This document shows, piece after piece, positions 11,101 to 56,398 of a DNA stretch of 64,000 nucleotides. A program made the translations under genes and the position numbers. Position 1 is the stretch's first letter; every line of letters begins with the position of its first letter. The notes under the pieces are model-generated. The model was not told the DNA's origin, ran no database searches, and saw only the letters and a list, made by a program, of their open reading frames with translations. Source of the stretch: Longimicrobiales bacterium (GTDB lineage: Bacteria; Gemmatimonadota; Gemmatimonadetes; Longimicrobiales; Gaopeijiaceae); assembly GCA_965202985.1 (NCBI GenBank), contig CBDBCF010000002.1, positions 576,001 to 640,000 of the forward strand, in the 5' to 3' direction.

Positions 11101-11145
11101 GGCCGCGAGACCCGTGCCGGCGCTCTTCGAACGGACAACGTTCAT
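8107..11145 (-). CDS. susC: SusC/RagA-family TonB-dependent outer-membrane transporter
   Basis: ATG 11145 with GGAGG RBS; signal peptide; CarboxypepD_reg-like domain; IRIRGSSS..NEPLLYVDG; DIESIEIIKGPSAATLYGTEAANGVIRITTK; C-terminal Phe. Confidence 0.95.
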   Translation of the reverse strand: MNVVRSKSAGTGLAAVLTLALAVPVAAVAQERATVTGEVRDAATQAPLAGAQVLIEGTNFGGITSAAGRFVILNVPPGTHALRAVFIGYGPESQEFTAQPGGTAEVDFLLSPSALQLDEIVVTATGEQRKRELGNSVGDLQAVEIMEEAAVNNMADLIQGRSAGVQVLNSAGTSGVGSRIRIRGSSSISLSNEPLLYVDGIRVDGRSRGGGIYTGGQESSRLDDFNPEDIESIEIIKGPSAATLYGTEAANGVIRITTKRGRPGETRWNAWVETGLIQEPNTYPLNYAGLDAAGGRYARACRLNEVASGLCNQTSIESYQVLHDPDLSPIDDGNRAQYGLSVSGGNERVSYYVAGELEGETGPYTLPQADREDLEERGVPIISEVERPNQLRRKNLRVNLNSQLSDRVSLAVRTSYLDSHFAMIGNDNNSFGFLPSAFFGGSNPDRAWGFQRPAQLFGRTFYQDTQRITAGGTATYDPFEWLQLRSTAGLDYYNRLDVSFFARDIGVPGDSNRGRKDSNYANQWQYTLDAGGTASFELAPGLTSKSTVGVQYFENQYTGTQAWGIDIVNGASSIGASAENFSSEFHVFEKTAGLFVDQQFGLNDRLFVTGAVRADDNSAFGQDFDLIYYPKASLSWIASEEDFFPRADFLDQLRIRAAWGRSGLQPGSDDAIRTLAANAITTPDDATGSGVSIGNIGNNLLEPEESSELEAGIDVEMFRGRTALEVTYYNKNTSGALIQVPLAPSLGASASRWINIGEVSNKGWEAAINGTLLQTDALVWDVTLSGSINKNELVSLGEGTEPIGSQTRFVPGYPLGGQWDRPLQSWSDADGNGIITPDELVVGDTLEYIGPGQPENQLSISTSIRIMRNLRLYGLLDYRGNYIAYNNTERFRCRFRLCGALVDPATPVDDQARAVASLFHPSQTVWGYMEKGDFWKLREVSLRFDLPTEFAERMRAAGASLTLTGRNLGTWTNYTGMDPEINWNGSGDNFGVSEFLTQPPVRYWTLRLNFNF

Positions 11146-11306
11146 ACTTTGCCCTCCTTGCTTGGGGCTGCCCCGTCGTTGGGGCGTCGGGGGAAAGTCG
11201 CGTCGGGCGGCGGGGAGCGCGGGAGTCCCACGCAACCATGGTCCCGCCCGGAAGCGCGATGTTTCCGTGAACCGAAAAGCTAGCGCTTGGCAGGCGGGAT
11301 CGCACT

Positions 11307-11344
11307 TCCCCGGCGCAGCGCGGGACAACGCACCGGGCCGGGGA
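11307..11344 (-). terminator. Stem-loop 3' of giant adhesin 1 (homologous to 41217-41254)
   Basis: Minus strand TCCCCGGCCCGGTGCG-TTGTCC-CGCGCTGCGCCGGGGA; stem includes G-U pairs and one mismatch. Confidence 0.55.
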
Positions 11345-23300: not shown

Positions 23301-26300
23301 CGCCCGTCGGCGGCCGTCCCACCGAAACGCTCGTCACGCGCGCCGAGCCCGCCACCTTCCATCTGGGATCGTCCACTATCGTCAGCGACGCGTCTATCCA
23401 TGGATTCACGTTGATCTGGTTGGCGTCCCTGATCGTACCCCCGTTCAGGTCGACGGCGTCGCTCAGTATCCCCACCCCGGTTTTGTCCTCGATCCCCGAC
23501 TGCACCACGTAGCGAAACTCCAACTGGCTCGTGCCCGACCCCGAGTGGTAGTTCGCCCAGCCCTGACCAGCGCCCAGCCAGATCCTCGCCCGCGGCGTGC
23601 CCGTCACGACGGTCGTCTCCCTGAAAGCCAGCGTCACCTTCACCGTGTCGCCTCTCGCGAAGATCGAGTCCTCGCCCGCCGAGTTGACCGACAACCCCGT
23701 CACCTTGTTGCTCGTGGGAAGCACCTTGTGCGTCGCGTCGTCGGTGACCACGTGGGTCAGCAAACTGACGACCGCGTTTACCGTCGTGGCCACCCGCCTG
23801 ATCGTCCCGCCGTTCAGCGTCAGCGCGTCCGCCAAATAGCTGATCCCCGTGCTGTCCGTGTCCGCCGCCACCGTGACGTAGCGGAACGTCAGCGAATCGC
23901 CGCCCGTACCCGACACGTAGTTCGCTTGCCGCGTCGCCGCACCGATCTCCAACGCCAGCCGCGGCGTGCCCGTCACGTTCACGTTCTCGTTGAACAGCAC
24001 GGCCACCTCGATCGTGTCGCCGAAAGCGTAGGTGCTGTCGGTCCCAGGATCGCTCGCGATCGCCGTGCCCGTCACGTGCGGCAACCCCTGCACGCCCCAC
24101 ACCCTGTGCGCCGCCGCGTTCGTCACCGCGTGGACCGTCAACCCCAAGACCGCGTCCACCGTCGTGCTGCCCGCACGCCTGATCGTCCCGCCGTTCAGCG
24201 TCAGCGCGCTCTCGCCGATGCTCAACCCGTCCGTGTCGACGTCTCCCGCCACCACCGTGTAGCGGAACGTCAGCGAATCGCCGCCCGTGCCCGACGCGTA
24301 GCTCGCCTGTCTCGTCTGCGAACCGATCGTCAACGCCAGCTGCGGCGTGCCCGTCACGTCCACATTCTCGACGAACACCACGCCGACCTCGATCACGTCG
24401 CTCACGGCGTAGGCGCTGTCGTTCCCCGCGTCGCTCGCAATCGCCACGCCGGTGACGACCGGCGGCCCCGTGGCACCGTTCACCTTGTGGGCGGCGTCGT
24501 CGGCGACGACTTGGGTCCCCAGGTTCAGGTACGCGTCCCGCGGGCTGCCCCCATACAGGACCGTCCCCTTGATCGTCCCCCCGTTCAGAGTCAGCGCGCT
24601 CGCCGAATAGCTGATCCCGGTGTTGTCCGCGTCCGCCGGCGTCACCGCGTAGCGGAACGTCAGCGAATCGCCGCCGCTGCCGGAGACGTAGTCCGCCTGC
24701 CGCGTGTTCGCGCCGATCGTCAACGCCAGCCGCGGCGTGCCCGTCACCGCCACGTTCTCGTCGAAGACCACACCGACCTCGATCACGTCGCCCCGCACGT
24801 ACGTGCTGTCGTTCCCCGCGTCGCTCGTGATCGACGTCCGCTGAACGTCCGGCACGCCCCGCAGGCCGTCGACCTTCCTGGTGGCGTCGTTCATGAAGGA
24901 CACCCCCAAAATCGAAAGCGTCGTATTCGCAGCTCTGCCCCCACCACTTACACTGCCGACAAGCGCATCCTCCTCGATGCTTAGGCCATCTGCGTCGACG
25001 TCGGCGGTCGTAATGTAGTATCTGAACGATAAGCTATTCGACCCCACGCCAATGTAATCCATGCGCACCAACCTCGAACCGATCCTGAGGTTAAACCATA
25101 CTTGACCTGCGAAAGGCGGGTTGATACTGCCGTTGAAGTAGACATTGAATCCGAGTTCGTCGCCGAAGGCGAAAGTAGAGTCAGGCCCCGCGTCGGCAAC
25201 CCAGCCAATGCCGTTAATGACCCGCGTGATGCCGTCCACCTTGTGGGCCGCGGCGCTGCTGACAGCATGCGAGCCAAGCGATAAGGTCGCGTCCATCGAG
25301 TCGCTCGAGGCCTTGATCGTCCCGCTGTTCAGTGTCAGCGCGCTCGCGCCGATGCTCAGCCCGTCCGTGTCCTCGTCCGCCCCCACCACCTCGTACCTGA
25401 ACACCAGCGAATCCGATCCGCTGCCCGACACGTAGCTCGCCTGCCGTGTGTTCGCGCCGATCCCCAGCGCCAGCCGCGGCGTGCCCGTCACCCACACCGA
25501 CGCGCTGAACTGGACCGCGACATGGATGTGCTGTGCCTTGTACCACGTCGAATCTGCCGGGGTTGTCGGGAATACGACGCCCGACACGATCGGCGGGGTG
25601 CTCACCTTGTGCGCCGCGGCGTTCGCGATCGCGTGGCTGCCCAGGCTGCTCAGGACCGCGTCCTTCGTCCCCAGCCGGATCGTGCCGCCGTTCAGCGACA
25701 GCGCGCTCGCACCGATGCTGATCCCGTCCGTGTCCGAGTCCGCCGCTACCACCACGTACCGGAACACCAGCGACGCCGAACCCGTCCCACTCGCGTAGCT
25801 CGCCTGCCGCGTCTGCGAACCGATCCCCAAAGCCAACTGCGGCGTGCCCGTCACCGCCACCGCCGAGTCGAACGCCACCGTCACCGCTATCGTGTCGTCA
25901 GCAGCATACGTGCTGTCCGAACCCGCGCTGCTGCTGATCGTCACCCCCGTCACCTTGGGATACCCCTGGGCGCCGTCCACCTTGTGCGCAGCTGCGTTCG
26001 TGATCGCGTTGCTGCCCAGGCTCAGGTTGGCAAAGTCGCCTGATGCGGAGGTTTCCACGCTACCGTTTAGAAACGAGTGGGTGGAGATTCCGTCCGCGTC
26101 CATGTCCGACGTCTGCACAAGGTACCACAGCTCAACCCAGGCGTTCCCTCCGCCCGTGGCTTGGCCTGTGGGGGCAGCCGAGCCAAAGCCGCTAGCGGCT
26201 CCCCCCACCGCATTTCTGTTGACCGACCCGATCGTAATCCTCAAGATGATACCATCGTCGGCGTAGGCGTTTACGCCGAGCGACCAGTACGTCCTGATCT

Positions 26301-41267: not shown

Positions 41268-44200
41268 CTAGAAGACGATCCTGCCCGAGAGGCCGATGCG
41301 GCGTTCCGGGGGCTGGACGCCGCTGGCGACGTGCTCGCCGAACAGGTCCATCATCAAGCGCAGGCCGGGCGACCGGGTCCCCGGGGACTCGGTAAGTTGC
41401 CCGGTGGTCTCGCCGCCCAGCAGCGACCAGCGGGTCCCTATGTTCACCCGATGGCCCGTCGGTCCCTCGCGGCTCCACCGGCCGAACGGCTTGACCTGAG
41501 CGCCGCCGGACAGCAGCACGCCGTAGCCGACCTCCATCGCCACGCGGTCGGGTGCCCAGCCCGGCGCGCTCGTGGCCGCCAAGAGGCCGGAGCTTGCCGG
41601 GAGGCCCGGGCCTGCCTGCGAGCCGACGGCCGGATCGCCATTCGCGCCCGACATGCCTTCGGCCGACGGGTCGCCCGGGTTGTGAGCGGGTTCCGGGCTT
41701 GCCGGGACGTTCGCGCCGATTGGCCGCGCAACCCGGCCCGGCGCGCCGAAGCCGGCCACGCCCGCGGTCCGCCACACGTCGGCGCCGCCCTGCCACAGCG
41801 TCCGCGCGCCGCGCCCAGCGTCGCCCCACGTCGGCTCGACCGAGAACGACAGCCCGCTCTCGCCCTCGCCGCCCCCGCCGCCCGGCTGCAACCTCAGCGA
41901 GAACCCGGCGCCCCAGTCCTTGAAGTCCCGCTCCTGGTGCACCAGCAGCGCACGGCCCCGCGCCGTCATGCTGAACCCGCTGGCCTGGTGCGCCAACCCC
42001 ACCTCGGCGCCCGCCTCCGCGCCCATACCCGTCTCCGCGTCGCCGCCGTCGAAGCGACCCCCCACCTCGAGCCGCGTCCGCATCGCCAGCCCGCCGCCCA
42101 GCTGCCACTGGCCGCCGATCTCCGGCGCCAGTCGCACGCGCTGCGCGTCCGCCGTCACGCCCGCCAGCCCCGCCACCTCGTCCGACAAGATGCGGACGGC
42201 GAAGGCGTCCGCCTTCAGCGCCAACCCGCCGGTCAGCTCCTGGCGCACGCCCAGCGCACCCATGCGCATCTCCAAGTCGGTGTCGAAACGGCCGCCAGCC
42301 GACTCATCGAGCGTCGCGTCGCCCCGGCCCGCGCCCGCCAAGCCCCACACGCCGAACCCGCCGCTGGACGACCAGTGCAGGTAGGGGTACAGGCTGGTCA
42401 GGCGAGCGTCGACCGAGCCCGCGCCGTTGACGTCGCTGTCGAAGCCGGCCTCCATGTCGCTGCGCGAGCCCGCAAGCCCCATCAGCACGCCCGACGCGAA
42501 CCGGTAGTCCAGCCCCAAGTAGGCGGAGCGCGTGCGGCCGTCCATGGCGAAGCCTTCGTCGGGACGGCCCTCGAACTCGCCCAGGTTCGCCTGGCCCCAC
42601 ACCGTCCAGCCCGACCGGACAGCAGCCTGCGAAGAGACGGAGGCTGCGCTTGCCGCGTCGCCGGCCGCCGAGCCGTCCGAGCCGCCGAATGACAGCTGGA
42701 ACGAGCTCTGCGAGCGCAGGCCGAGGGCGTCGACCGGGTTGAACGTTAGGCCGCCGGTGCGGTCGGCGCGCCCGGCGTCGGCTTGCTGTTGGCCCTGGTA
42801 GGCGCCGCCCATGCCGGCCATGCCGCCGGCGCTGCCCGCGCCCGGACCGCTCCGCCCGTCGCCGAACAGCAGCGCGGCCAAGTCGACGGTCCCGCCGGCC
42901 ACATCGGCGGAGCCGGGAACGGCGATCTGCAGCCCCAGCAGGCCCGTCGCGCCCCGCACCAGCGACTCGAGACCGCACTCGCCCGAGCCGACAGCGGCGC
43001 TGTTGCTCTCGCCGTCATCGGCTTGGCCGTCTGCCGCGTTCGCAGCGTCGGCGAAGCCGCTTGCCCCGGCGCCCGGCGCGCCGCACGCCAGCGAGCGCCC
43101 GCCGAGCTGCACATGCGACCGGCCCAGCGCACCCGACGACCCCAGCCCCAACCGCCCGCCGATCGCATCCACCGTCTCCGTGCCCAGCGACCGGCCAAAC
43201 GCCGCCAGCGTCAGCTCCAACGCACGCGCACGCTCCGACCGCGACGCCTCCACCGTCACCCGCACCTGCTGCCGAGCCGACAACCCGCCCGGATCGCTCG
43301 CGCGTACCGTCACCACGGCCTCGCCGATCGCCTGCGGCGCGATTGACAACCGCCCCGCGCCCGTCACCGTCGCAGCCGCCACGGCCGGCGACGACGACTC
43401 GACCGCGTACGTCAGCGCGTCGCCGTCCGGGTCCCGGAAGTACTGTCCCAACTCCTCTTCCACAGCGTCGCCGTACGCCTCGAGCGTCTTCGGCGACATC
43501 GCGCCCACGGCCTCCGGGCCCTCGTTCACGTCCAGCAGCGTCACCGACACGCCCGCCTCGGCCGTCAGTCCGCCCGCGTCCGTCGCCCGCACCGTCAGCG
43601 CGAACATCGGCGGACCCGCCTCGTAGTCCTCGCCGCTCCCCACGTACCGCACCTCGCCCGTCCGAGCGTCCACCTCGAACCGTGCGGCGTCGCCTTCGGC
43701 CAAGCTGTACGCCGGCGCGTCGCCGCGGTCGGGGTCCGTCGCTTCGACCACGCCCAGCGTCAGCGGCCCGGCAACGTTCTCCGCCAGCTCGAACGCGTAC
43801 GCGCTGTCCGCGAACGCCGGCGCCTCGTTCACGTCCAGCAGCGCGACCGTCGCAACCGCGCGCGCCGCCAGCCCCTCGCCGTCCGTCGCAACCACCTCGA
43901 ACTCCCAGGACGCCGGGCCCGCCTCGTAGTCCTCGCCCGCGCCCGCGTACCGCACCTCGCCCGTCGCAGCGTCCACCTCGAAGAGCGCCGCGCCTTCGCC
44001 CGACAGGCTGTACACGAGCGTGTCCGCTCGGTCCGGGTCCGCCGCCTCGACCGCGCCCAGAACCAACGGTCCGGCGACGTTCTCCTCGAACTCCCACTCG
44101 TAGACCTCCGCAGCGAACGCCGGCGCCTCGTTACGGTCCAGCAGCGCCACCACCACCCGCGCAGACGCCGCGATGCCGCCGCGGTCCGTCGCACGGACCT

Positions 44201-47200
44201 CGAACGCCCAGCTCTCCGGGCCCGTCTCCGCGTCCTCGCCTGCGCCCACGTAGCGCAACTCGCCCGTAACAGCGTCCACCTCGAACCGCTCGGCGTCGCC
44301 TTCGGCCAAGCTGTACACAGGCGGGTCGTCCCGGTCCGGGTCCGTCGCCCGCACGACGCCCAGCACCAACGGTCCCGCAACGTTCTCCGCCAACTCGAAC
44401 GCATACGCCGAGTCCGCGAACGCCGGCGCCTCGTTCACGTCCGCAACCACCACCGTCGCCGTCGTCCGCGCCGTACGGCCCACCAAGTCCGTCGCCGTCG
44501 CCTCCAACACCCACGGCCCCGCGCCGCCCTCGTAGTCCTCGCCACCGCCAACGTACCGCAACTCGCCCGTCTCCCCGTCCAGCTCGAACCGCTCGGCGTC
44601 GCCTGCCACCAGCGCGTAGGTCAGCGTGTCGCCCTCGTCCGGGTCCACCGCCTCCAACACGCCCAGAACCAGCGGACCCGCAGCGTCCTCCGCCAGCTCG
44701 AACACCCAACGCTCCTCGACGAACGACGGCGCCTCGTCGTTCTCGTTCACAACCTTCACCGTCACCTTCGCCGTCGTCTCGAGCTGCTCGTCCTCGCCCA
44801 CGCCGTCCGTCACCGCCACCACCAGCATCACGTACTCCGAACGCTGCTCCGCGTCCTCGCCTCCGCCAACGTAAGTCACCACGCCGCTCGACACGTCCAC
44901 CTCGAACAGCCCCTCGCCTCCGCTCTCCAACCCGTAGCGCACCTCGGCATCGAGAGGACTCGCCGCGACCACCTCGCCCACCGGCAGCGGGCCCGCAACG
45001 TTCTCCGCCAACTCGAACTCGTACTCCAACCGACCGAACACCGGGTCCAGGCTGCCCGCGCCGTTCACCGCGTGGTCCGTCAGGTCCGTCACCGCGTGCG
45101 CGCCCAGGTCCAGAACCGCAGCAGCCTGGCCGCCCGCGATCCGCAGCGCGCCCGCAGCCTCCGCCAGCGCGTCCGCCGGGATGCTGATCCCGTCCGGGTC
45201 CCGGTCCGCCGGCCGGACCACGTACTCGAACGCCAGCACCGTCGTGCCCGAGCCCGACACGTAGCGCGCGTGCCGCGTCGTGCCGCCCACGTCGATCGCC
45301 AGCCGCGCCGCAGCCGTGTTCGCAGCCGTCATCGACGCCGCCAGCGCCGGCGACGACGACGCGCCCGCCACGTCGACCGGTCGGCTGAACGTCACCTCGA
45401 CACGGATCACGCCGCCCGCGCCGTACAGTCCCGTCGCCACAGGCTCGCTCGTCACCGCCACGCCGACCACCACCGGCGCGACCTCGACCGTGCCGTCCAC
45501 CTTGTCGGCAGCCGCCGCGACGATCGCCTGAGCGCCCAACGCCAGCGTCGCCGGACGAACGCCGTCCGCCGTGTTCACGATCGTACCGCCGTTCAGCGTC
45601 AGCGCAGCCGCAGCAACGCCCACGCCGTCCGCGTCCGCATCCACGCCGCCCGTACCGCTGCCGCCGCTGCCCGCGCCCTGCACCCGGTACGCGAACGACA
45701 GCGTCGCCGTGCCGCTGCCGTCCGCGTAGCTCGCCTGACGCGCAACCGCGCCCACCGTCAGCGCCAGACGCGGCGACCCCGTCACCGTCACCGCGCGGTC
45801 GAACGTCACCTCGACCTCGATCCGCTCGCCCAGGCCGTAGGTGTCCGCGCTGTCCGGCGTGCTCGACACCGCTACGCCCGTCACCGACGCGCCCGCCAGC
45901 GTCCCGTCCACCTTGTGGCCAGCAGCCGCGCTCAACGCATGGCTGCCCAATCCCAACGCCGCCGCAGTCGAGCCGTCGCGGGCGTCCGCGATCGCGCCGC
46001 TGTTCAGCGCCAGCGCGCTCGCGCCGACCTCGATGCCGTCGGTGTCCGCGTCCGCAGCCACCACTACGTAACGGAACGTCAGCGCTCGCGTGCCCGTCCC
46101 GCTCGCGTAGTCCGCCTGCCGCGTCTGCGCACCCACCGTCAGCGCCACCCGAGGCGTGCCCGTCACCGCCACCCGACGGTTGAACGTCACCTGAACCTCG
46201 ATCCGCTCGTCGCGGCCGTACGTCGTCGCCACCGCAGGCGAACTCGTCAGCGACACGCCAGACACCGACGCCGCCGTGAACGTGCTGCCCGCAACCTTGT
46301 GGCCCGCGCTGTTCGTCACCGCGTGGGCACCCAGCCCCAGAACCGCGTCCACCGTGCCGCCCGCCACGTCGATCGTCCCGCCGTTCAGCGCCAGCGCGCT
46401 CGCGCCGATGCTGATCCCGTCCGCGTCCGCGTCCGCAGTCACCACCACGTAACGGAACACCAGCGACGCCGTGCCCGTGCCCGAAGCGTACGACGCCTGC
46501 TTCGTTGTGCTGCCGATCCCCAACGCCAGCTGCGGCGTGCCCGTCACGTCCACCGCCTTGTTGAACACCACCGTCGCAACCACCGTGTCGCCTCGCTCGA
46601 ACGTGTCGCCCACCACGGGCGACGCGATCGTCACGCCGCTCACGCCCGGCGGGCCCTGAGCACCGTCCACTCGGTGGCCGCCGCTGTTCGAGACCGCGTG
46701 GCCGCCCAACCCCAGGCTCGCAGCCTCGTTCGCGTCGCGCGCGTCCGCGACCGTCCCGCCGTTCAGCGACAACGCGCTCGCGCCGATGCCGATCCCGTTC
46801 CCGTCCGCGTCGCCAGCAACCACCGTGTAGGCGAACGACAGCACCCGGCCACCCGTCGTCGCCACGTACGACGCCTGTCGCGTCCGCGAACCGATCGTCA
46901 GCGCCAGCTCCGGCGACCCCGTCACCGCCACGTTCCGGTTGAACGTCACATCGACACCGATCTCCTCGCTCAACCCGTACGTGCCGCCGCCCGCCGGACT
47001 GCTCGTGATCGTCACCGCGCTCACCGACGCCGCCGTGAACGTCCCGCCCGCGACCCGGCGCCCGCCCGCGTTGCTGATCGCATGATGCGCCAAGCTCAAC
47101 AACGCGTCCGTCGTACCGCCCGCCACGTCGATCGTACCGCCGTTCAGCGTCAGCGCATTCGCGCGGATGCTCAACCCGTCCGTGTCCGCGTCGCCCGAAA

Positions 47201-50200
47201 TCACCACGTACCGGAACTCCAACGACGTCGTGCCCGTCGCCGCGCTCGCGTAGGCTCCCACCTGCTGTGCGCCAATCGACAACGCCAGCTGCGGCGCGCC
47301 CGTCACGTCCACCGCCTTGTTGAACGTCACCGTCGCAACCACCGTGTCGCCTCGCTCGAACGTGTTGCCCACCGGCGGCGCTGCCACCGCCAACCCCACC
47401 ACGCCCGGCGGACCCAGGCTGCCGTTCACCTTGTGCGACGCAGCGTTCGATATCGCACGCGCGCCCAGTCCAAGCGCAGCAGCAGCAGCGCCCGGACGCA
47501 CGTCGGCGATCCCGCCCCCGTTCAGCGCGAGCGCGCTCACGCCGATGCCGATGCCGTCCGTGTCCGCGTCCGAAGGACGGATCGCGTACCCGAACACCAG
47601 CGTGTCCGCCTTGCTCGAAGCGGCATCGTAGCCGGCCTGTCGCGTCGTGGTCCCGATCGTCAGCGCCAAGCGCGGCGCGCCCGTCACCGCCACCGGACGG
47701 TTGAACGCCACCTTCACCTCGATCGACTCGCCCAGCTGGTACGTGCTCGCGCTCGCCGGAGCGCTCGATATCGTCACCGCGCTCACAGCCGGCGTCGTGA
47801 ACGTGCCGCCCGCAACCTTGTGGCCCGCGCTGTTCGTCACCGCGCTCGTACCCAGCCCCAGCGTCGCGTCCAGCGTCCCGCCCGCGACCTTGATCGTGCC
47901 GCCGCTCAGCGCCAACGCGCTCGCCGCGATGCCGATGCCGTCGGAGTCCGCGTCGCCCGCCGCCACCACGTAACGGAACACCAGCGTGTCCGTGCCGCTC
48001 CCGCTCGCGTAGATCGCCTGCCTGGTCGCGCTCCCGATCGTCAGCGCCAACCGCGGCACACCCGTCACGTCCACCGCACGGTTGAACACCAGCTCGACCT
48101 CGATCGTCTCGCCACGCTCGAACGTGTCGCCAACCGTCGGAGAGCCGATCGACAGCGACGTCACCCCCGGCGGCCCGCGGCTGCCGTCCACCTTGTGCGC
48201 AGCAGCGTTCGATATCGCGGACGAGCCCAGACCCAGGCCCGCCGCCATCGTACCGCCCCGAGCGTCGTTGATCGTGCCGCCGTTCAGCGCCAACGCGCTC
48301 GCCACGATGCCGATCCCCGTCGAGTCCGCGTCCGCCGCCACCACCGTGTAGCGGAACGCCAGCGCCGTCGTCCCGCTCCCGCTCGCGTAAGACGCCTGAC
48401 GCGTCTGCGAACCGATCGTCAGCGCCAGCTGCGGCACGCCCGTCACCGTCACCGGACGCGTGAACCCAACCTCGACCTCGATCACCTCCGTACGTCCGTA
48501 CGTGCTGTCGCTCGACGGACTGCTCGATATCGTCACGCCGCTCACCGCAGCAGCCGTGAACGTACCGCCCGCAACCTTGTAGTTCCCGTTGTCGGTGACA
48601 TAGTGGTCCCGCAAGCTCAGCACCGCGTCCGTCGTCGCGCCCGACCGACGGACCGTACCGCCGTTCAAAGCCAACGCGCTCGTCCCGATGCTCAACCCGT
48701 CCGCGTCCGCGTCCGCCGTCACCACCACGTACCGGAACACCAGCGTGTCCGTCCCCGTCCCCGCAGCGTAGCTCGCCTGCTTCGTCGCGCTCCCGATCCC
48801 CAAAGCCAGCTGCGGCGTCCCCGTCACCGCCACCGACTTGTTGAACGCCACCTTGACCTCGATCGTCTCGCCGCGCTCGAACGTGTCGCCAACCTCCGGC
48901 GAACCGATCGACAACCCCGTCACGCCCGGCGGACCCTGCGCGCCGTCCACCTTGTGCGACGCCGCGTTCGATATCGCGCTCGAGCCCAGCCCCAGGCTCG
49001 CCGCCGTCGAACCGTCACGCGCGTCGTTGATCGTACCGCCGTTCAGCGCCAACGCGCTCGTCCCGATGCCGATGCCATTCGCGTCCGCGTCCCCCGCTAC
49101 CACCTCGTACCCGAACGTCAGCGTCTTCGTGCCCGTGCCGCTCGCGTAGTCAGCCTGCCGCGTCGCAGCACCCACCGTCAGCGCCACCCGCGGCGCGCCC
49201 GTCGCGTTCACCGGCCGCACGAACGTCACCTCGACCTCGATCTGCTCGCCCAGACCGTACGTGTCCCCGCTCGACGGACTGCTCGAGATCGCCACCCCGC
49301 TCACCGACGACGCCGTGAACGTGCCGCCCGCAACCTTGTGGCCCGTGCTGTTCGATATCGCGTGCGTCCCCAGCCCCAACGTCGCGTCCAGCGTCCCGCC
49401 CGACAGACGGATCGTCCCGCTGTTCAACGCCAAAGCGCTCGTCCCGATGCTCAACCCGTCCGCGTCCACGTCCGCCTGCACCACCGTGTACTGGAACACC
49501 AGCGACGCCGTGCCGCTCCCGCTCGCGTAGCTCGCCTGTCGCGTCTGACTCCCGATCCCCAAAGCCAACTGCGGCGTCCCCGTCACCGCCACCGCGCGGT
49601 TGAACGTCACCGTCGCTTCAATCGCGTCGCCCCGCTCGAACGTGTCGCCCACGGGCGGCGACCCGACGACCACGCCGATCACACCCGGCGGTCCCTGCGC
49701 ACCGTCCACCTTGTGCGCAGCAGCGTTCGATATCGCGTTCGAACCCAAGCCCAGCCCCGCAGCCTCGCTCGCGTCACGTGCGTCGGCGATCGTGCCGCCG
49801 TTCAGCGCCAACGCGCTCGTCCCGATGCTGAGCCCGTTCGCGTCCGCGTCCGCAGCCACAACCGTGTACTGGAACGTCAGCGTCTTCGTGCCGCTCCCGC
49901 TCGCATACGCAGCCTGGCGCGTCTGCGAACCAATCGTCAACGCGACCTGCGGCGCGCCCGTCACCGCCACGTTGCGGTCGAACGTCACCTCCACCTCGAT
50001 CTGCTCCGTACGACCGTACGTGCTGTCGCTCGCCGGACTGCTCGAGATCGACAACCCCGCTACCGACGACGCCGTGAACAACCCGCCGTTCACCACCAGA
50101 AAGTTCTCGAACGCTTGATGCTCCAAGCTCAACAAGGCGTCCGTCGTACCGCCCGCAACGTCGATCGTACCGCCGTTCAGCGCCAAGGCGCTCGCGCCTA

Positions 50201-53200
50201 CGCTCAATCCGTCCGCGTCCACGTCCGCCGTCACCACCACGTAACGGAACACCAGCGACGCCGTGCCCGTCCCCGACGCATACGCCGCCTGTCGCGTCTG
50301 CGAACCGATCCCCAGCGCCAGCCGCGGCGTGCCCGTCACGTCCACCGCCTTGTTGAACCGCACCGTCGCAACAATCGTGTCGCCGCGCTCGAACGTCGTG
50401 CCCGTCGGCGGCGACGCCACCGTCAGGCCCGTCACGCCCGGCGGACCCAGCCCGCCGTTCACCTTGTGCGAAGCGTCGTTCGTCACCGCGCTCGTGCCCA
50501 GCCCCAGCGCAGCAGCAGCCGCGCCCGGACGCACGTCGGCGATCGTCCCGCCGCTCAACGTCAGCGCGCTCGCTGCGATGCTCAACCCGTCCGCGTCCAC
50601 GTCCGAAGGACGAACCGCGTAACCGAACACCAGCGTGTCCGCCTTGCTCGAAGCCGACTCGTAGCTCGCCTGACGAGCGACCGTCCCAATCGTCAGCGCC
50701 AGCCGCGGCGTGCCCGTCACCGCCACAGGCCGCCCGAACGCCACCTTCACCTCGATCGACTCGCCCAACTGGTACGTCTGACCGCTCGCCGGAGCGCTCG
50801 ACACCGTCACCGCAGTCACCGCCGGCGTCGTGAACGTCCCGCCCGCCACTTGGTGGCCGCCGCTGTTCGTCACCGCGCTCGCGCCCAGCCCCAACGTCGC
50901 GTCCAGCGTCCCGCCCGACAGACGGATCGTGCCGCCGCTCAACGTCAGCGCGCCCGCGCCGATGCTCAATCCGTCCGCGTCCGCGTCGCCCGACGCCACC
51001 ACGTACCGGAACAGCAACCCCGTCGTCCCCGAACCGCTCGCGTAGCTCGCCTGCCTCGTCGCGCTCCCGATCGTCAGCGCGAGCCGCGGCGTGCCCGTCA
51101 CATCCACCGCGCGGTTGAACTCCAGCTCGACCCCGATCGTCTCGCCACGCTCGAACACGTCGCCCACCACGGGAGAACCGATCGTCAGTCCCGTCACCCC
51201 CGGCGGTCCCAGGTTGCCGTCCACCTTGTGCGCCGCAGCGTTCGTAATCGCGTTCGCGCCCAAGCCCAGGCTCGCGTTCGTCGTGCCGCCCGCGATCCGG
51301 ATCGCGCCGCCGTTCAGCGCCAACGCGCTCGCGCCGATGCTGATCCCCGTCGAATCCGCGTCCGCAGCCGCCACCGTGTACTCGAACCTCAACGTCCGCG
51401 TGCCCGTACCCCCCGCGTAATACGCGAACCTGGACACGCTCCCGACGGTGATCAACACGTACGGCGTCCCGAGAGTTGTCGCCCCCGGCGTGCCCGTCAC
51501 GTCCACCGAACGCTCGAACTCCACCTCCACCTCGATCGCCTCCGTACGTCCGTACGTGCTGTCGCTCGCCGGCGCGCTCGATATCGCCACGCCGCTCACC
51601 CCAGGCGCCACCTCCTTCGTCCCGTCGACCTGGTACGCCACCGCGTCCGCGAAGTTCCACGGAACCAGCGACAGCCGAGCGTCCGTCGCCGTCCCCGTCG
51701 CGCGAATCGTCGCGCCGCCCGGCAGCGTCAGAGCGCTCGCACCGATGCTGATCCCCGTCGAGTCCGCGTCCGCAGCAACCACCGTGTAGCAGAACACCAA
51801 GATGACGCCGCCCGACGTGTCGCACAGCGCAGCGCTCCGCGTCTGCGCACCGATCCCCAAAGCCAGCCGCGGCGTGCCTGTCGCCGTCACGCCCGCGTTG
51901 AACCCCACCCCCACCCGAATCTGGTCGCCCAGTCCGAACACGCTGTCCGTGCTCGCGTAAGAAATCCCGGTGTTCGCCGCCGACATGAAGAACGCGCTCG
52001 TCACGTACGGTACGGCGCCCGAAACCTTGTGCGCCGATGCGTTCGAAAACACGTGCGACCCCAACGCCAGGTCCGCCGCGTCCGACCAGAGCCGACCGTC
52101 CACAAGCGTGTCCGCCGCGCTCACCGCCAAAGCGCCCGCACCCACGCTGATCCCGTCCGCGTCCGCGTCCGTCGCCTGTACCACGTACCGGAACGTCACA
52201 CGCGTGGACGTCGCGTCCCTGCGGTTGTACTCCGCCTGACGCGTCGAGTCGCCGACCTCCAACGCCAGACGCGGCGTCCCCCCAACGTACACGCCCCGCA
52301 CGAACTCCACCTCCACCTCGATCGCCTCGCCCCCCAAGTACGTGTCCCCAACCACAGGACTGCTCGTTATCCTCAACCCCTTCACCACCGGCGTCGTCCG
52401 CGTGTTGCCCGCCACCTTGTGCGCAGCACTGTTCGTCACCGCGTGAGCGCCCAAACCCAACGCCGCGTCCGTCGTCGTCCCCATCTGCCGGATCGTCGAC
52501 CCGGACGGAGTTTCCAGCGCGTTCGCGCCGATGCTGATCCCGTCCGCGTCCGCGTCCGTCTGGAACACCGTGTACTCGAACTCCAGCGACGTCGTCCCCG
52601 AACCCCTCGCGTAGAGCGCGTTCCGCAAACTCGACCCGATCCCGAGCCGAACCCGCGGCCTGTTTGCGCCTGTGGTGGGCGTCACCGTCACCGCCGCGTT
52701 GAACTCCACCGTCACGACCACCACGTCGCTCAACTCGAACGTGCTGTCCGCCGGAGCATCGCCGATCGACACGCCCGTCACACCCGGCGGCCCCAGATTG
52801 CCGTCCACCTTGTGCGCCGACGCGTTCGTGATCGCGTTCGTCCCCAACCCCAAGTTCGCGGTCGCCGTGCCGCCCGCGATCCGGATCGTCCCGCCGTTCA
52901 GCGCCAGTGCGCTCGCGCCGATGCTGACCCCCGTCGCGTCGCTGTCCGTCGGCGCAACCGTGTAGCGGAACCTCAAGGAGCGGGTTCCGGTGCCCGCCGC
53001 GTAGTCCGCCTGCCGCGTCTGCGTCCCGATCCCCAGCGCCACCTGCGGCGTCCCCGTCGCGTCCACCGGACGGTCGAAGTCGACCTTGACCTCGATCACG
53101 TCGCCCGTCGCGTACGTCGAGTCGGCGCCCGCGTCGCTGCTGATCGACACGCCGCTCACGTTCGGCGCCGCCTCCTTGGCGCCGTCAACCTGGAAAGCGA

Positions 53201-56072
53201 TGCTGTTCGTGATCTCGAATCCGGCCAGCGACACGTTCGCGTCCGTCGTCGTCCCCTGCCGCCGAATGTAGGCCCCCGACCCGGCAGGAAACGTCAGCGC
53301 GTTCGCGCCGATGCTGACCCCGGTCGAGTCCACGTCCGCCGCCACGACCGTGTAGCAGAAGAGCGCAAACCTAGCGGCGCGGGCGCACCCCGGGGCCTGC
53401 CGCGTCTGCGTCCCGATCCCCAGCGCCAGTTCCGCATGCCGCGTCTGCGTCGTCAGAATATCAACGTTCGTGTTGAACCCAACGGCCACCCAAATCTGGT
53501 CCCCAAGCCCGAACACGCTGTCCGTGCTCGCAAAGAACGTCTGCACCCCCTGCGGGTTCGTGAAAAACATGGTCGTCACGTAAGGCACGTCGCCCGTCAC
53601 CTTGTGCCCCGCCGCGTTCGAGATCGCGTTCGTCCCCAACCCCAAGTTCGCGGCCGTCGTGCCGCCCGCGATCCGGATCGTCCCGCCGTTCAGCGCCAAA
53701 GCGCTCGCGCCGATGCTGATGCCGTTCGCGTCCGCGTCCGCCACGACCACTGCATAGCGGAACGTCAAAGACCTGGTGCCCGAGCCCGCCGCGTAGCCCG
53801 CCTGCCGCGTCAGCGTGTCGATCCCCAGCGCCACCTGCGGCGTCCCCGTCACATCCACCGGACGGTCGAAGTCGACCTTGACCTCGATCGTGTTGCCTTC
53901 GGCGTACGCGCTGTCAGCGCCCGGGTCGCTGCTGATCGTCACGCCGCTCACGTTCGGCGCCACCTCCACCGTGCCGTCAACCTGGTAGGCCACATTGTTC
54001 GTGAACGTGTGGTCAGCCAGCGACACGTTCGCGTCCGTCGTCGTCCCCTGCCGCCGAATGTAGGCCCCCGACCCGGCAGGAAACGTCAGCGCGTTCGCGC
54101 CGATGCTGATCCCCGTCGAATCCCTGTCCGCCGCCACGACCGTATAGCAGAAGAACGCAAACCTGGGGTTCTGGCCGCACAGCGGGGCCTGCCGCGTCTG
54201 CGTCCCGATCCCCAGCGCCAGTTGCGCCTGCGTCTGCGTCGTCGACGCAATCCTAACGTTCGTGTTGAACCCAACGATCACGCGAACCACATCCCCCGAT
54301 CCGTAGACGCTGTCCGTGCCGGCATGGAATATCTGCACCCCCTGCGGGTTCGCGATAAAGATGGTCGTCACGTAGGGCACGTCGCCCGTCACCTTGTGCC
54401 CCGACGCGTTCGAGATCGCGTGGCTGCCCAAACCAAGGTTCGCGTTCGCCGATCCGCCCTTGAGCTCGATCGTCCCGCCGTTCAGCGCCAGCGCGCTCGC
54501 GCCGATGCTGATGCCGTCCGCGTCCGCGTCCGCCACGACCACTGCATAGCGAAACCTCAAAGACGTGGTGCCCGTGCCCGCCGCGTAGTCCGCCTGCCGC
54601 GTCTGCGTCCCGATCCCCAGCGCCACACGCGGCGTTCCCGTCACGTCCACCGGACGGTCGAAGTCGACCTTGACCTCGATCGTGTTCCCTTCGGCGTACG
54701 CGCTGTCAGCGCCCGGGTCGCTGGAAATCGTCACGCCGCTCACGTTCGGCGCCACCTCCTTCGTGCCGTCCACCTTGAAAGCGGCATTGTCCGTGTTGTC
54801 GTGCGCCGCCAGCGACAGGATGGCGTTCGTCGACGTGCCCTGCCGCCGGATCGCGCCCCCGGGTATCGTCAGCGCGTTCGCGCCGATGCTGATCCCGGTC
54901 GAGTCCCTGTCCGCCGCCACGACCGTGTAGTTGAAGAACAGTGAGCGGTTGTTAAACGCGTAGAAGGTCGCGGTTCTCGTATTCGCCCCGATTGTCAAGG
55001 CCAGCCGCGGCCACTGAGTGTGCCAGCTGATCTCCCTGTTGAACGTCACCCTCACCCTGATGACGTCCTCCAGCCCGAAGGTGCTGTCCGTCGCCGCCTG
55101 CGTGATGACAGCGCCGTGTTGGGCGAGGTAGTCCACGGCGGACACGATCGGCGGCGTCACCTTGGTGCCGTCGACTTGAAAGGCCACATTGTTCGTGACT
55201 GCGTGGTCCGCCAGCGACAGGTCAGCGTCCGTCGTCGTGCCCGCGGCCACGACCCGGGCTCCGCTAGGCAGCGTAAGCGCGTTCGCGCCGATGCTGATCC
55301 CGTCCGAGTCGCTGTCCGCCGCCACCACCGTGTAGCAGAAGATCAAAAAGGAGGTCACGTTGTTGCACAACGGCGCATTCCGCGTCTGCGACCCGATGTT
55401 CAGCGCCAGCTGCGGCGTTCCCGAGCCGCTTATGTTCCTGCTGAATCTGACGGCCACTCTGATCCGGTCGCCCACGCCGTAGATGCTGTCGCCCTGTTCG
55501 AGGTTCGCGTGGAGGATCTGGATTCCGCGGGTCGGATGGAGGAACCAAATGGACACCGCGGCGGGAACGTCGCCCTGCACCTTGTGGGCCGCCGCATTCG
55601 AGATCGCGTGGGCGCCCAGCCCCAGGTTCGCGGCCGTCGCGCCCCCCGCGATCTGGATCGTACCGCTGTTGAGCGCCAGTGCGCTCGCGCCGATGCTTAT
55701 CCCGTCCGCATCGACGTCCGTGGTCACTACCGTGTAGCGGAAAGTCAGCGTGCCCGTACCTGTCCCGCTTGCGTAGTTCGCCTGCCGCGTCGCCGCGCCG
55801 ATCGTCAGCGCCAGTTGCGGCGTGCCCGTCACGTCCACCGACTGGTCGAAACGAACTTCGACCGCGATCACATCGGTCGCCGCGTACGTCGAGTCGACGC
55901 CCGCGTTGCTGCTGATCGACACGCCGCTCACGTTCGGCGTCTGGGCGGTCGCGGCGACCGGCGACCCAGCGGCAACCAGCCCGGCGACCGCCAGCGGCAG
56001 GCCAAGAGCCGAAAGGAGCCTTCGCCCTACTAGAGCTGGCATGGCTCGCGGCCCAAGAGGCTCGCGGCTCAC
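41268..56072 (-). CDS. Giant repetitive autotransporter-like adhesin 2 (about 4934 aa), paralog of adhesin 1; probable true start ATG 56112 is frameshifted
   Basis: Signal peptide ..LLSALGLPLAVAGLVAAGSPVAATA-Q; 28 modules (about 55940-45060), 5 cadherin-like plus one Ig-like domain, barrel ending ..GRIVF. Region 41268-52020 is collinear with 11359-22190. Confidence 0.85.
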   Translation of the reverse strand: MSREPLGPRAMPALVGRRLLSALGLPLAVAGLVAAGSPVAATAQTPNVSGVSISSNAGVDSTYAATDVIAVEVRFDQSVDVTGTPQLALTIGAATRQANYASGTGTGTLTFRYTVVTTDVDADGISIGASALALNSGTIQIAGGATAANLGLGAHAISNAAAHKVQGDVPAAVSIWFLHPTRGIQILHANLEQGDSIYGVGDRIRVAVRFSRNISGSGTPQLALNIGSQTRNAPLCNNVTSFLIFCYTVVAADSDSDGISIGANALTLPSGARVVAAGTTTDADLSLADHAVTNNVAFQVDGTKVTPPIVSAVDYLAQHGAVITQAATDSTFGLEDVIRVRVTFNREISWHTQWPRLALTIGANTRTATFYAFNNRSLFFNYTVVAADRDSTGISIGANALTIPGGAIRRQGTSTNAILSLAAHDNTDNAAFKVDGTKEVAPNVSGVTISSDPGADSAYAEGNTIEVKVDFDRPVDVTGTPRVALGIGTQTRQADYAAGTGTTSLRFRYAVVVADADADGISIGASALALNGGTIELKGGSANANLGLGSHAISNASGHKVTGDVPYVTTIFIANPQGVQIFHAGTDSVYGSGDVVRVIVGFNTNVRIASTTQTQAQLALGIGTQTRQAPLCGQNPRFAFFCYTVVAADRDSTGISIGANALTFPAGSGAYIRRQGTTTDANVSLADHTFTNNVAYQVDGTVEVAPNVSGVTISSDPGADSAYAEGNTIEVKVDFDRPVDVTGTPQVALGIDTLTRQAGYAAGSGTRSLTFRYAVVVADADANGISIGASALALNGGTIRIAGGTTAANLGLGTNAISNAAGHKVTGDVPYVTTMFFTNPQGVQTFFASTDSVFGLGDQIWVAVGFNTNVDILTTQTRHAELALGIGTQTRQAPGCARAARFALFCYTVVAADVDSTGVSIGANALTFPAGSGAYIRRQGTTTDANVSLAGFEITNSIAFQVDGAKEAAPNVSGVSISSDAGADSTYATGDVIEVKVDFDRPVDATGTPQVALGIGTQTRQADYAAGTGTRSLRFRYTVAPTDSDATGVSIGASALALNGGTIRIAGGTATANLGLGTNAITNASAHKVDGNLGPPGVTGVSIGDAPADSTFELSDVVVVTVEFNAAVTVTPTTGANRPRVRLGIGSSLRNALYARGSGTTSLEFEYTVFQTDADADGISIGANALETPSGSTIRQMGTTTDAALGLGAHAVTNSAAHKVAGNTRTTPVVKGLRITSSPVVGDTYLGGEAIEVEVEFVRGVYVGGTPRLALEVGDSTRQAEYNRRDATSTRVTFRYVVQATDADADGISVGAGALAVSAADTLVDGRLWSDAADLALGSHVFSNASAHKVSGAVPYVTSAFFMSAANTGISYASTDSVFGLGDQIRVGVGFNAGVTATGTPRLALGIGAQTRSAALCDTSGGVILVFCYTVVAADADSTGISIGASALTLPGGATIRATGTATDARLSLVPWNFADAVAYQVDGTKEVAPGVSGVAISSAPASDSTYGRTEAIEVEVEFERSVDVTGTPGATTLGTPYVLITVGSVSRFAYYAGGTGTRTLRFEYTVAAADADSTGISIGASALALNGGAIRIAGGTTNASLGLGANAITNAAAHKVDGNLGPPGVTGLTIGSPVVGDVFERGETIGVELEFNRAVDVTGTPRLALTIGSATRQASYASGSGTTGLLFRYVVASGDADADGLSIGAGALTLSGGTIRLSGGTLDATLGLGASAVTNSGGHQVAGGTFTTPAVTAVTVSSAPASGQTYQLGESIEVKVAFGRPVAVTGTPRLALTIGTVARQASYESASSKADTLVFGYAVRPSDVDADGLSIAASALTLSGGTIADVRPGAAAAALGLGTSAVTNDASHKVNGGLGPPGVTGLTVASPPTGTTFERGDTIVATVRFNKAVDVTGTPRLALGIGSQTRQAAYASGTGTASLVFRYVVVTADVDADGLSVGASALALNGGTIDVAGGTTDALLSLEHQAFENFLVVNGGLFTASSVAGLSISSSPASDSTYGRTEQIEVEVTFDRNVAVTGAPQVALTIGSQTRQAAYASGSGTKTLTFQYTVVAADADANGLSIGTSALALNGGTIADARDASEAAGLGLGSNAISNAAAHKVDGAQGPPGVIGVVVGSPPVGDTFERGDAIEATVTFNRAVAVTGTPQLALGIGSQTRQASYASGSGTASLVFQYTVVQADVDADGLSIGTSALALNSGTIRLSGGTLDATLGLGTHAISNSTGHKVAGGTFTASSVSGVAISSSPSSGDTYGLGEQIEVEVTFVRPVNATGAPRVALTVGAATRQADYASGTGTKTLTFGYEVVAGDADANGIGIGTSALALNGGTINDARDGSTAASLGLGSSAISNAASHKVDGAQGPPGVTGLSIGSPEVGDTFERGETIEVKVAFNKSVAVTGTPQLALGIGSATKQASYAAGTGTDTLVFRYVVVTADADADGLSIGTSALALNGGTVRRSGATTDAVLSLRDHYVTDNGNYKVAGGTFTAAAVSGVTISSSPSSDSTYGRTEVIEVEVGFTRPVTVTGVPQLALTIGSQTRQASYASGSGTTALAFRYTVVAADADSTGIGIVASALALNGGTINDARGGTMAAGLGLGSSAISNAAAHKVDGSRGPPGVTSLSIGSPTVGDTFERGETIEVELVFNRAVDVTGVPRLALTIGSATRQAIYASGSGTDTLVFRYVVAAGDADSDGIGIAASALALSGGTIKVAGGTLDATLGLGTSAVTNSAGHKVAGGTFTTPAVSAVTISSAPASASTYQLGESIEVKVAFNRPVAVTGAPRLALTIGTTTRQAGYDAASSKADTLVFGYAIRPSDADTDGIGIGVSALALNGGGIADVRPGAAAAALGLGARAISNAASHKVNGSLGPPGVVGLAVAAPPVGNTFERGDTVVATVTFNKAVDVTGAPQLALSIGAQQVGAYASAATGTTSLEFRYVVISGDADTDGLSIRANALTLNGGTIDVAGGTTDALLSLAHHAISNAGGRRVAGGTFTAASVSAVTITSSPAGGGTYGLSEEIGVDVTFNRNVAVTGSPELALTIGSRTRQASYVATTGGRVLSFAYTVVAGDADGNGIGIGASALSLNGGTVADARDANEAASLGLGGHAVSNSGGHRVDGAQGPPGVSGVTIASPVVGDTFERGDTVVATVVFNKAVDVTGTPQLALGIGSTTKQASYASGTGTASLVFRYVVVTADADADGISIGASALALNGGTIDVAGGTVDAVLGLGAHAVTNSAGHKVAGSTFTAASVSGVSLTSSPAVATTYGRDERIEVQVTFNRRVAVTGTPRVALTVGAQTRQADYASGTGTRALTFRYVVVAADADTDGIEVGASALALNSGAIADARDGSTAAALGLGSHALSAAAGHKVDGTLAGASVTGVAVSSTPDSADTYGLGERIEVEVTFDRAVTVTGSPRLALTVGAVARQASYADGSGTATLSFAYRVQGAGSGGSGTGGVDADADGVGVAAAALTLNGGTIVNTADGVRPATLALGAQAIVAAAADKVDGTVEVAPVVVGVAVTSEPVATGLYGAGGVIRVEVTFSRPVDVAGASSSPALAASMTAANTAAARLAIDVGGTTRHARYVSGSGTTVLAFEYVVRPADRDPDGISIPADALAEAAGALRIAGGQAAAVLDLGAHAVTDLTDHAVNGAGSLDPVFGRLEYEFELAENVAGPLPVGEVVAASPLDAEVRYGLESGGEGLFEVDVSSGVVTYVGGGEDAEQRSEYVMLVVAVTDGVGEDEQLETTAKVTVKVVNENDEAPSFVEERWVFELAEDAAGPLVLGVLEAVDPDEGDTLTYALVAGDAERFELDGETGELRYVGGGEDYEGGAGPWVLEATATDLVGRTARTTATVVVADVNEAPAFADSAYAFELAENVAGPLVLGVVRATDPDRDDPPVYSLAEGDAERFEVDAVTGELRYVGAGEDAETGPESWAFEVRATDRGGIAASARVVVALLDRNEAPAFAAEVYEWEFEENVAGPLVLGAVEAADPDRADTLVYSLSGEGAALFEVDAATGEVRYAGAGEDYEAGPASWEFEVVATDGEGLAARAVATVALLDVNEAPAFADSAYAFELAENVAGPLTLGVVEATDPDRGDAPAYSLAEGDAARFEVDARTGEVRYVGSGEDYEAGPPMFALTVRATDAGGLTAEAGVSVTLLDVNEGPEAVGAMSPKTLEAYGDAVEEELGQYFRDPDGDALTYAVESSSPAVAAATVTGAGRLSIAPQAIGEAVVTVRASDPGGLSARQQVRVTVEASRSERARALELTLAAFGRSLGTETVDAIGGRLGLGSSGALGRSHVQLGGRSLACGAPGAGASGFADAANAADGQADDGESNSAAVGSGECGLESLVRGATGLLGLQIAVPGSADVAGGTVDLAALLFGDGRSGPGAGSAGGMAGMGGAYQGQQQADAGRADRTGGLTFNPVDALGLRSQSSFQLSFGGSDGSAAGDAASAASVSSQAAVRSGWTVWGQANLGEFEGRPDEGFAMDGRTRSAYLGLDYRFASGVLMGLAGSRSDMEAGFDSDVNGAGSVDARLTSLYPYLHWSSSGGFGVWGLAGAGRGDATLDESAGGRFDTDLEMRMGALGVRQELTGGLALKADAFAVRILSDEVAGLAGVTADAQRVRLAPEIGGQWQLGGGLAMRTRLEVGGRFDGGDAETGMGAEAGAEVGLAHQASGFSMTARGRALLVHQERDFKDWGAGFSLRLQPGGGGGEGESGLSFSVEPTWGDAGRGARTLWQGGADVWRTAGVAGFGAPGRVARPIGANVPASPEPAHNPGDPSAEGMSGANGDPAVGSQAGPGLPASSGLLAATSAPGWAPDRVAMEVGYGVLLSGGAQVKPFGRWSREGPTGHRVNIGTRWSLLGGETTGQLTESPGTRSPGLRLMMDLFGEHVASGVQPPERRIGLSGRIVF
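53070..54765 (-). repeat. 792-bp tandem duplication of module pairs in the adhesin 2 tip
   Basis: CGGTCGAAGTCGACCTTGACCTCGATC recurs at 53071, 53863 and 54655 (period 792 bp). Confidence 0.85.
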
Positions 56073-56083
56073 GCGGAGAAATC

Positions 56084-56107
56084 GGGGGGGGGGGGGGGGG
56101 GGGGGGG
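56084..56107 (-). repeat. C24 homopolymer (G24 on +) just after the upstream ATG of adhesin 2
   Basis: ATG AG(C)24 GATTTCTCCGCGTG...; ATG 56112 is 40 nt upstream of the in-frame GTG 56072, so it is out of frame by one base. Confidence 0.9.
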
Positions 56108-56398
56108 CTCATCTTTGGCCTAGTCCTAGTCCAGAAGTCCGATTCTGTTGACTGATTTGATCGACTGGGGATTGGACGGAATGTAACGTAAAGTGAGCCA
56201 GAACGCTCGGGTAGGCGCGGGCGTTGGGCGGGAGGTCCGCTCGACGACGCGCGCCCGGGCCGCCTCCCGGACCATGCAGCGCACGGCGTTCCTTGCCCCT
56301 CCGCTCCCGCCAGCGGTAGACTGCAAGCTCGGAACACCTGTCTCATCGCGGTGACCACACGCAACTTGCTCGCCCTTCGGCATCCGTGACGCGCTCAC

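Follow-up and report, generated by a model that had tools for sequence, protein, structure and literature searches.

Our subject is a window of 64,000 nt from a sponge-associated Longimicrobiales genome (G000 in what follows) in which two giant open reading frames (ORFs) on the minus strand, copy 1 and copy 2, each carry a long run of C shortly after an upstream ATG. We found that these runs belong to a leader common to 48 genes of one family in seven genomes, which consists of an upstream start, the run, a linker, a second ATG and a signal peptide. The sequence comparisons support the view that the runs are slipped-strand contingency tracts in a translated leader. The initial annotation had proposed slipped-strand phase variation with stochastic ON/OFF display of two alternative adhesins; the slipped-strand part stands, while a binary switch looks improbable and a choice between two adhesins does not fit a genome in which 11 genes carry the run. 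We give an even chance to a switch in which the run length selects among three states, namely fusion of leader and gene, coupling by re-initiation at the second start, and OFF. From these comparisons we infer switching within populations, the use of the starts, the coupling, the expressed states and the adhesive function.

The layout is best seen in the window itself, where all of the features below are on the minus strand. In copy 2 the run is G24 on the plus strand at 56084-56107, or C24 on the coding strand, and the ATG that begins the variable leader ORF (56110-56112) is 5 nt before it. The 41-nt linker that follows (56043-56083) has no stop in the frame of the giant ORF and leads to the second ATG at 56042, which begins a predicted 33-aa Sec signal peptide (55944-56042, a rule-based cleavage call). 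The giant ORF, counted from a GTG, is 4934 aa long (41268-56072). Copy 1 has a G23 run on the plus strand at 26501-26523 (C23 on the coding strand), two upstream ATGs that share one frame (26530-26535, 12 and 9 nt before the run) and a second ATG at 26460 with a predicted 27-aa signal peptide (26380-26460, again a rule-based call).

With these run lengths ATG 26535 of copy 1 is in frame with its giant ORF, which is open over 5058 aa (11359-26535), and ATG 56112 of copy 2 opens a different frame of 282 aa that ends at 55264 (55264-56112). No family match was found for this 282-aa product. When the run length was varied by script, removal of one C (C23) fused the copy 2 leader with the giant ORF to give 4947 aa, so the tracts, the frame reached from ATG 56112 and the effect of one C are all as first described. 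The third frame (C22/C25), which had not been noticed, completes three outcomes for each gene. In copy 2 it gives a peptide of 13-14 aa that ends at a TGA overlapping the in-frame GTG 56072 (GTGA at 56069-56072), a candidate re-initiation site, with more +1-frame TAG stops at +10 and +13 of ATG 56042. In copy 1 it gives a 27-28-aa peptide that ends at a TAG 7 nt into ATG 26460 (26451-26453), formed from the rare Val codon GTA. The remaining state of copy 1 (C21/C24) reads 113-114 aa of junk.

Below we call the fusion frame 0, the frame that reaches these short-peptide stops +1 and the other -1. At its consensus length copy 2 is in the -1 frame and OFF and copy 1 is an in-frame fusion and ON, as the initial annotation had it, under both of the models that lead our ranking; these calls depend on the true lengths, with one consensus length for each gene. 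Metagenome run contigs from two studies, one of which may be the source sample (X1, X3 and X5), match the copy 2 flanks and break within the run, which from the offsets in the contig records would be at least 21-22 G long.

The runs are far too frequent to be due to chance. In G000 (3.86 Mb, two contigs, 69% GC) the number of C/G runs declines geometrically up to length 12, there are none of 13-14, and then there are 26 of length 15-33, compared to about 4e-5 runs of at least 15 expected from the 6-to-7 extension ratio. A genome-wide search for leader runs had been suggested as a check, and 11 of these 26 do head giant autotransporter-type genes. Runs of at least 15 number 23 in G001 and 38 in G003. 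One-contig relatives have 0-4 (four in G008, one in G012 and none in G039), and three near-complete genomes of the same family (G261, G258 and G059) have no run of 12 or more. Long runs are therefore no general product of GC content or of complete assembly. Their length also differs among relatives: it is 24, 21, 20 and 27 in the closest relatives of copy 2, which are paralogs and genes of other species rather than clones, and 11-31, mostly about 20, across the 48 genes. Two hallmarks of a contingency locus, a repeat beyond chance at a functional site and a length that varies among relatives, are thus seen here. Loss of mismatch repair as the origin of the runs was rejected, as MutS- and MutL-family genes are present in all four genomes of the genus. 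A scan of metagenome contigs for relatives returned 365 pattern matches, none of which was confirmed. Of the six metagenome runs that contain at least half of the sampled words, four are sponge metagenomes from a single study. The nearest named relatives, at 89%, are Longimicrobiales / Gemmatimonadota MAGs.

For the comparison we took all runs of at least 11-12 in 11 genomes (209 + 45 runs) and kept those followed by a family gene, which gave 51 pairs. Three were dropped: G000 C1:2783521, which is the second and distant run of a gene that was in the set already, L249, a promoter spacer (L-numbers denote run loci of the compared genomes), and L301, a run behind the signal peptide. The final set has 46 genes with C and two with G; family members without a run were counted in G000 only. 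An ATG lies within 30 nt before the run in 33/48 genes, compared to 6-15/40 in windows further upstream, and seven of the eight members with several upstream ATGs have them in a shared frame. The second start is present in all 48 (45 ATG and 3 GTG) and is followed by a signal peptide that is mostly 23-33 aa long. The linker ranges from 3 to 332 nt, and its stops are strongly biased by frame, with 1, 7 and 22 of the 48 linkers containing a stop in frames 0, +1 and -1, whereas shuffled linkers give 14.6, 14.9 and 14.4. Since frame 0 is stop-free across the linker in 47/48 genes, the fusion frame appears to be kept open, as the ON/OFF model of the initial annotation needs, and this holds at the level of clusters of related genes (0.03 stops vs 2.9 expected). 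A repeat downstream of a start with one frame open into the gene, the mark of an ON/OFF switch, is therefore what most of these leaders have. In a held-out genome (G255) seven of eight genes fit, with linkers of 71-100 nt in which frames 0 and +1 are open and -1 is closed. At 5' runs of unrelated genes no clear pattern of the coupling layout was found, and most of those genes have no second start.

The evidence that points beyond a simple switch is the position of the +1 stop. A stop in this frame lies within -2 to +13 nt of the signal-peptide start in 46/48 genes, which is the arrangement of coupled gene pairs, where the upstream stop overlaps or is near the downstream start. The background is high, as 31/60 signal-peptide genes without a run also have a near +1 stop, but 29 of these are of the ATGA type. 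With ATGA and GTGA overlaps excluded, the near stop is found in 29/31 run genes vs 2/31 controls. In the subfamily of the window copies, anchored on a downstream motif, the TAG at codon 3 is kept in 23/26 members and all three that lost it carry TGATG instead; GTA, the source of this TAG, makes up 2% of Val codons. Sequence conservation in this subfamily begins at the second ATG and falls off upstream of it. Elsewhere the overlap takes other forms. A new TGATG is found right behind the run in L100 and L204, and the 13,000-aa orthologs have GTGA, TGATG, ATGA or TGA at +7, depending on the genome. In L201 frame 0 closes at codon 41, and frame +1 continues over 75 codons up to a TAG at ATG+7. In the same locus (G041 C1:1062049) the upstream ATG overlaps the stop of the preceding gene (ATGA), which by a sequence motif is putatively ribosomal-protein-L27-like; this leader may be coupled at both ends.

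The second start itself has unusual properties. A Shine-Dalgarno (SD) energy of -5 kcal or lower is reached in 8/47 cases vs 34/60 controls and the local fold is -14.5 vs -8.3, and with weak SD and structure the start looks poor for independent initiation. All 48 genes nevertheless have, behind the run, a conserved in-frame start and a full signal peptide. Initiation at the downstream ATGs (26460 and 56042) had been named as an alternative that would make the run irrelevant to frame. We see these ATGs rather as part of the device, given that conservation begins there and that the +1 stop falls on this start in nearly all of the genes.

The consensus states of the runs are also not what one would expect if frame did not matter. 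Among the 35 genes with an upstream ATG within 45 nt, 10 are in frame 0, 5 in -1 and 20 in +1, and the counts become 14, 6 and 24 when GTG and TTG starts are included. As a control we used 44 runs inside other genes, an automatic set that includes some doubtful rows, which gave 17, 18 and 9 for frames 0, -1 and +1. Relative to this control the excess of +1 has a p of 0.001 and the deficit of -1 a p of 0.013. Because the intragenic runs are distributed so differently, the excess and the lack reflect no general sizing bias, and a systematic one-base undercall as the origin of the +1 excess was rejected as it is not seen at these 44 runs. Even among genes in which it would end early the -1 state is seldom found (2/19, p 0.024), and since an early stop costs little this argues that -1 is avoided as the silent state.

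These observations can be brought together in a mechanism with three outcomes. Ribosomes would start at the upstream ATG, read the run as polyproline and exit in a frame set by the run length. In frame 0 they would read through into the signal peptide, giving an N-terminally extended precursor but the same mature protein (ON). In frame +1 a leader peptide of 13-45 aa would end on the second start or within 13 nt of it, and the structured, SD-poor second start would be translated by translational coupling; this state, the commonest, would also be ON, though probably at a different level. In frame -1 the ribosome would halt well before the second start or pass it as junk, giving an OFF state that is disfavoured. 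Each cell would then have its own combination across about 11 paralogs with variable N-terminal repeats. Ribosomes stall on polyproline and then need EF-P; the EF-P family is present in all four genomes of the genus. On C runs tRNA-Pro can slip by +1, so that the -1 state could be leaky. In addition, poly(C) is a ligand of Rho. Any of these, EF-P-dependent stalling, tRNA-Pro slippage or Rho binding, might explain the 46-to-2 preference for C. A broader idea, which we would put a little below even, is that a homopolymer in an upstream mini-ORF acts as a three-level dial (fusion, termination-reinitiation, off) on a giant gene family, with the overlap rebuilt several times independently, about 11 dials per genome forming a combinatorial surface code, and selection in the sponge favouring the coupled state.

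Several points weigh against this three-state mechanism and should be kept in mind. ATGA is uninformative alone given its frequency in the controls (29/60), and this overlap type is found in 17/48 members, including all seven that fit in the held-out genome, whose agreement thus rests on ATGA overlaps in one related subfamily. The -2 to +13 window was chosen after inspection of the first 40 genes. The overlap is shared by descent, and loose single-linkage gives only 9 clusters, of which 7.5 have the near stop (p 0.17 vs the 31/60 control); at this level linker stops show no depletion in the +1 frame (2.6 vs 3.1 expected). The commonest type other than ATGA is a 10-nt overlap (TAG at +7), which is beyond the -1/-4 overlaps usually studied, and rare codons that end in A are frequent at starts in general (AGA/CGA are retained in adjacent positions). 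In three loci (L109, L196 and L197) the +1 frame is closed and there is no start beside the first stop, which leaves the fusion route only. As a marker of starts the SD score has no power, since 60 genome starts could not be told apart from internal ATGs by it. The +1 state is not significantly more frequent than the 0 state (p 0.10). In the window, the +1 stop of copy 2 lies 27 nt before ATG 56042, and therefore only GTG 56072 could be coupled. Additionally, one contig from the strain of X7 has ATG 56042 out of frame, with the giant frame still open.

Part of this list is what one would expect from a classic two-state switch, which is the best of the alternatives although we consider it unlikely. 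Here only the upstream start would be used, frame 0 would be ON and the others OFF, the second ATG would be a relic, and the +1 stop would be a cheap end of the OFF peptide. The open frame 0, also by cluster, the enriched upstream ATGs, the weak and structured second start, the three fusion-only loci and the strain of X7 all agree with it, as does the finding that L301 and other genes of these genomes have plain frameshift runs. It would also be economical if most paralogs are OFF. What it leaves unexplained is why the stop sits on the start once ATGA is set aside, why TAG is exchanged for TGATG, why L201 has a closed frame 0, and why -1 is avoided even with an early stop and +1 favoured.

A second alternative is that the second ATG is a normal, independent start and that the run in the 5' untranslated region or promoter is a volume control acting through transcription, RNA structure or Rho loading, with frame irrelevant. 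The conservation from the second ATG on, the textbook signal peptides and the widely varying linkers would suit this, and 13/48 members have no ATG within 45 nt upstream. Runs of the promoter type do occur in these genomes. The G14 of L249 (G003 C1:3025509) is a spacer between TTGACT and TATAAT ahead of a family gene, which would make it a promoter-spacer switch, and in G000 C2:788096-788114 (C19) and L099 (C33) the run is directly upstream of TTGACA and a -10-like box spaced by 17 nt, ahead of a distant family member; by their motifs the latter are predicted upstream-element type switches in two genomes. However, the non-uniform states and the frame-biased linker stops mean that frame matters, upstream ATGs are enriched and in one frame in nearly all multi-ATG members, and the second start looks poor for the task. 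A scan around the two window runs found no promoter or terminator consensus. We regard this explanation as improbable for the leaders of the 48 genes.

It is least probable of all, to the point of being hardly credible, that sequencing and assembly inflated or mis-sized the runs, or that they expanded neutrally, with frames that have no meaning. In favour of this, runs of 20 or more are difficult for every sequencing platform, contigs break at them and G040 (830 contigs) shows 100 such runs that are probably artefacts. Against it, the runs occupy one functional site in 48 genes whose flanks are unrelated, the 13,000-aa orthologs have them as C or as G, few or none (0-4) are seen in near-complete relatives, ORFs of 11,123 and 13,057 aa are unbroken in the G000 assembly, and other G000 runs fall in methyltransferase-like, SGNH-like and TonB-receptor genes, which are typical contingency targets. 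The doubt touches the exact length only and not the existence of the run. Both G000 contigs begin inside a family gene (C1:1-7085, a frameshifted piece, and C2:1-12651), and these are probably one gene split by the assembly.

The proteins behind these leaders are 3500-13000 aa long and combine the signal peptide with repeats of about 125 aa, cadherin domains and a C-terminal barrel region. The C-terminus of copy 2 matches 16 ORFs in G000, 12 of them at 71-100%; the genome has 11 family genes with a run in the leader, four family ORFs with no run and one with a run just before a TTGACA box. A search of 251 genomes found the high-copy repeat in two genera, both from one family. In copy 2 the barrel (41889-42611, minus strand) is modelled as a 12-strand autotransporter-like beta-barrel with a pLDDT of 78 when an alignment is used, a single-sequence fold of the C-terminus having been uninformative (pLDDT 33). 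Its best Foldseek match is the BrkA beta domain (E 3e-7), and Atlas autotransporter clusters score 0.95-0.97 at low recognition. PF03797 is matched by 21/42 aligned relatives and not by copy 2, whose repeat and barrel gave no match in Pfam or NCBIfam. The signal peptide (by rule), the passenger and the 12-strand barrel (strands from the model) are those of a type Va autotransporter. The barrel of copy 2 is not the last domain, as about 200 aa behind it (41268-41890) consist of a disordered linker and, at the C-terminus, an additional beta region of five strands, which is unusual for this type. Copies 1 and 2 are about 48% identical over their first 1200 aa and 78-95% later, and their sequences read as variable tips on a shared stalk. 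RGD triplets number 11 and 6, Ig-like look-alikes are a weak lead, and the putative adhesin label comes from the architecture of the proteins.

In G000 the 13,057-aa ORF (C1:1804336-1843506) and the 11,123-aa ORF (C1:2579885-2613253) share long near-identical stretches, with a run (G12) only in the first. At C1:2783197-2783540 two C20 runs are 300 nt apart ahead of one giant gene, and in their upstream flank the 3' end of the RidA-like gene found ahead of window copy 1 occurs again, which suggests that the leader region was duplicated. A C9 run at C2:280386 has a leader as in the giant gene at C2:67287 but stands ahead of an unrelated membrane-anchored protein, so the leader cassette seems to move between genes.

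Long runs are also found well outside of this family. Methyltransferase-like genes of seven genomes have internal runs that differ in length and base at about the same place (G000 C1:2443104, L114, L161, L139, L269, L220 and others), and these are candidate phasevarions with a function judged from motifs. Three SGNH-like paralogs of G000 (C1:236913, 844542 and 945326) have C21-24 at an identical internal position. A PAPS-reductase-like gene has a run soon after the ATG in four genomes (G000 C1:1756566, L117, L147 and L169), which is out of frame in each of the three genomes with an identified upstream ATG. At G041 C1:2327789-2332624 and G003 C1:2689149-2689924 several long runs are clustered at spacings of a few hundred bases. 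In the window a coding-strand G11 run (7867-7877) lies within the gene downstream of a SusC-like TonB-dependent receptor (8107-11328); it is in frame in the consensus and is possibly a further contingency locus.

Repeat-driven phase variation is known mostly from pathogens, and one of the three frames is counted as ON. Should the coupled state prove productive, such frame-only calls would mark most of these genes as OFF though they are expressed, and a repeat combined with translational coupling would be an added mechanism of phase variation. The genome also shows an uncultured sponge symbiont with contingency loci in the style of pathogens in surface giants, methyltransferase-like genes, TonB receptors and promoter runs, and surface variation in sponge symbiosis can thereby be tested with no more than raw reads. 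Without coupling, what remains is a classic phasome, well developed and in a phylum that has been little studied. In a literature search of partial coverage we met neither a coupled leader under the control of a repeat nor a case of phase variation in Gemmatimonadota of sponges.

Four known systems are close to what we describe. NalP/MspA of Neisseria meningitidis (PMC3723659) has a homopolymer in the 5' coding part of an autotransporter gene, undergoes slipped-strand frameshift and is host-associated, and the presence of MutS and MutL here can be listed under the same likeness. Unlike in that case, our run (11-31) is followed by another conserved start and its complete signal peptide, a frame that looks OFF ends on this start, and the proteins are of giant size, about 11 per genome, in a sponge host. 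The promoter-spacer poly-G switch of N. meningitidis porA (PMC3639595) has exactly the layout of L249, whereas the two runs in the window come after an ATG and show no promoter consensus nearby. In the pil1 leader of Streptococcus gallolyticus (PMC3894217) a repeat in a short upstream ORF lets the frame place a stop, and the position of the stop controls the downstream adhesin genes. There GCAGA repeats and a hairpin terminator act by transcription attenuation (PMC3894217). In contrast, the scan of the two window runs revealed no intrinsic terminator, one frame fuses leader and gene, and the stop is on the start codon, pointing to a putative translational coupling. The last comparison is with termination-reinitiation pairs, which have stop-start overlaps of -1/-4 and a weak or structured downstream start. 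ATGA and TGATG pairs are commonly coupled and do not always require an SD (PMC6728339), a distance of about 20 nt abolishes coupling (PMC10666635), and silent structured downstream starts as well as short ORFs that only deliver ribosomes have been described (PMC12548453). Those pairs are fixed, whereas in our leaders only one of three hypermutable states takes the upstream ORF to the overlap, and overlaps of -10 are frequent.

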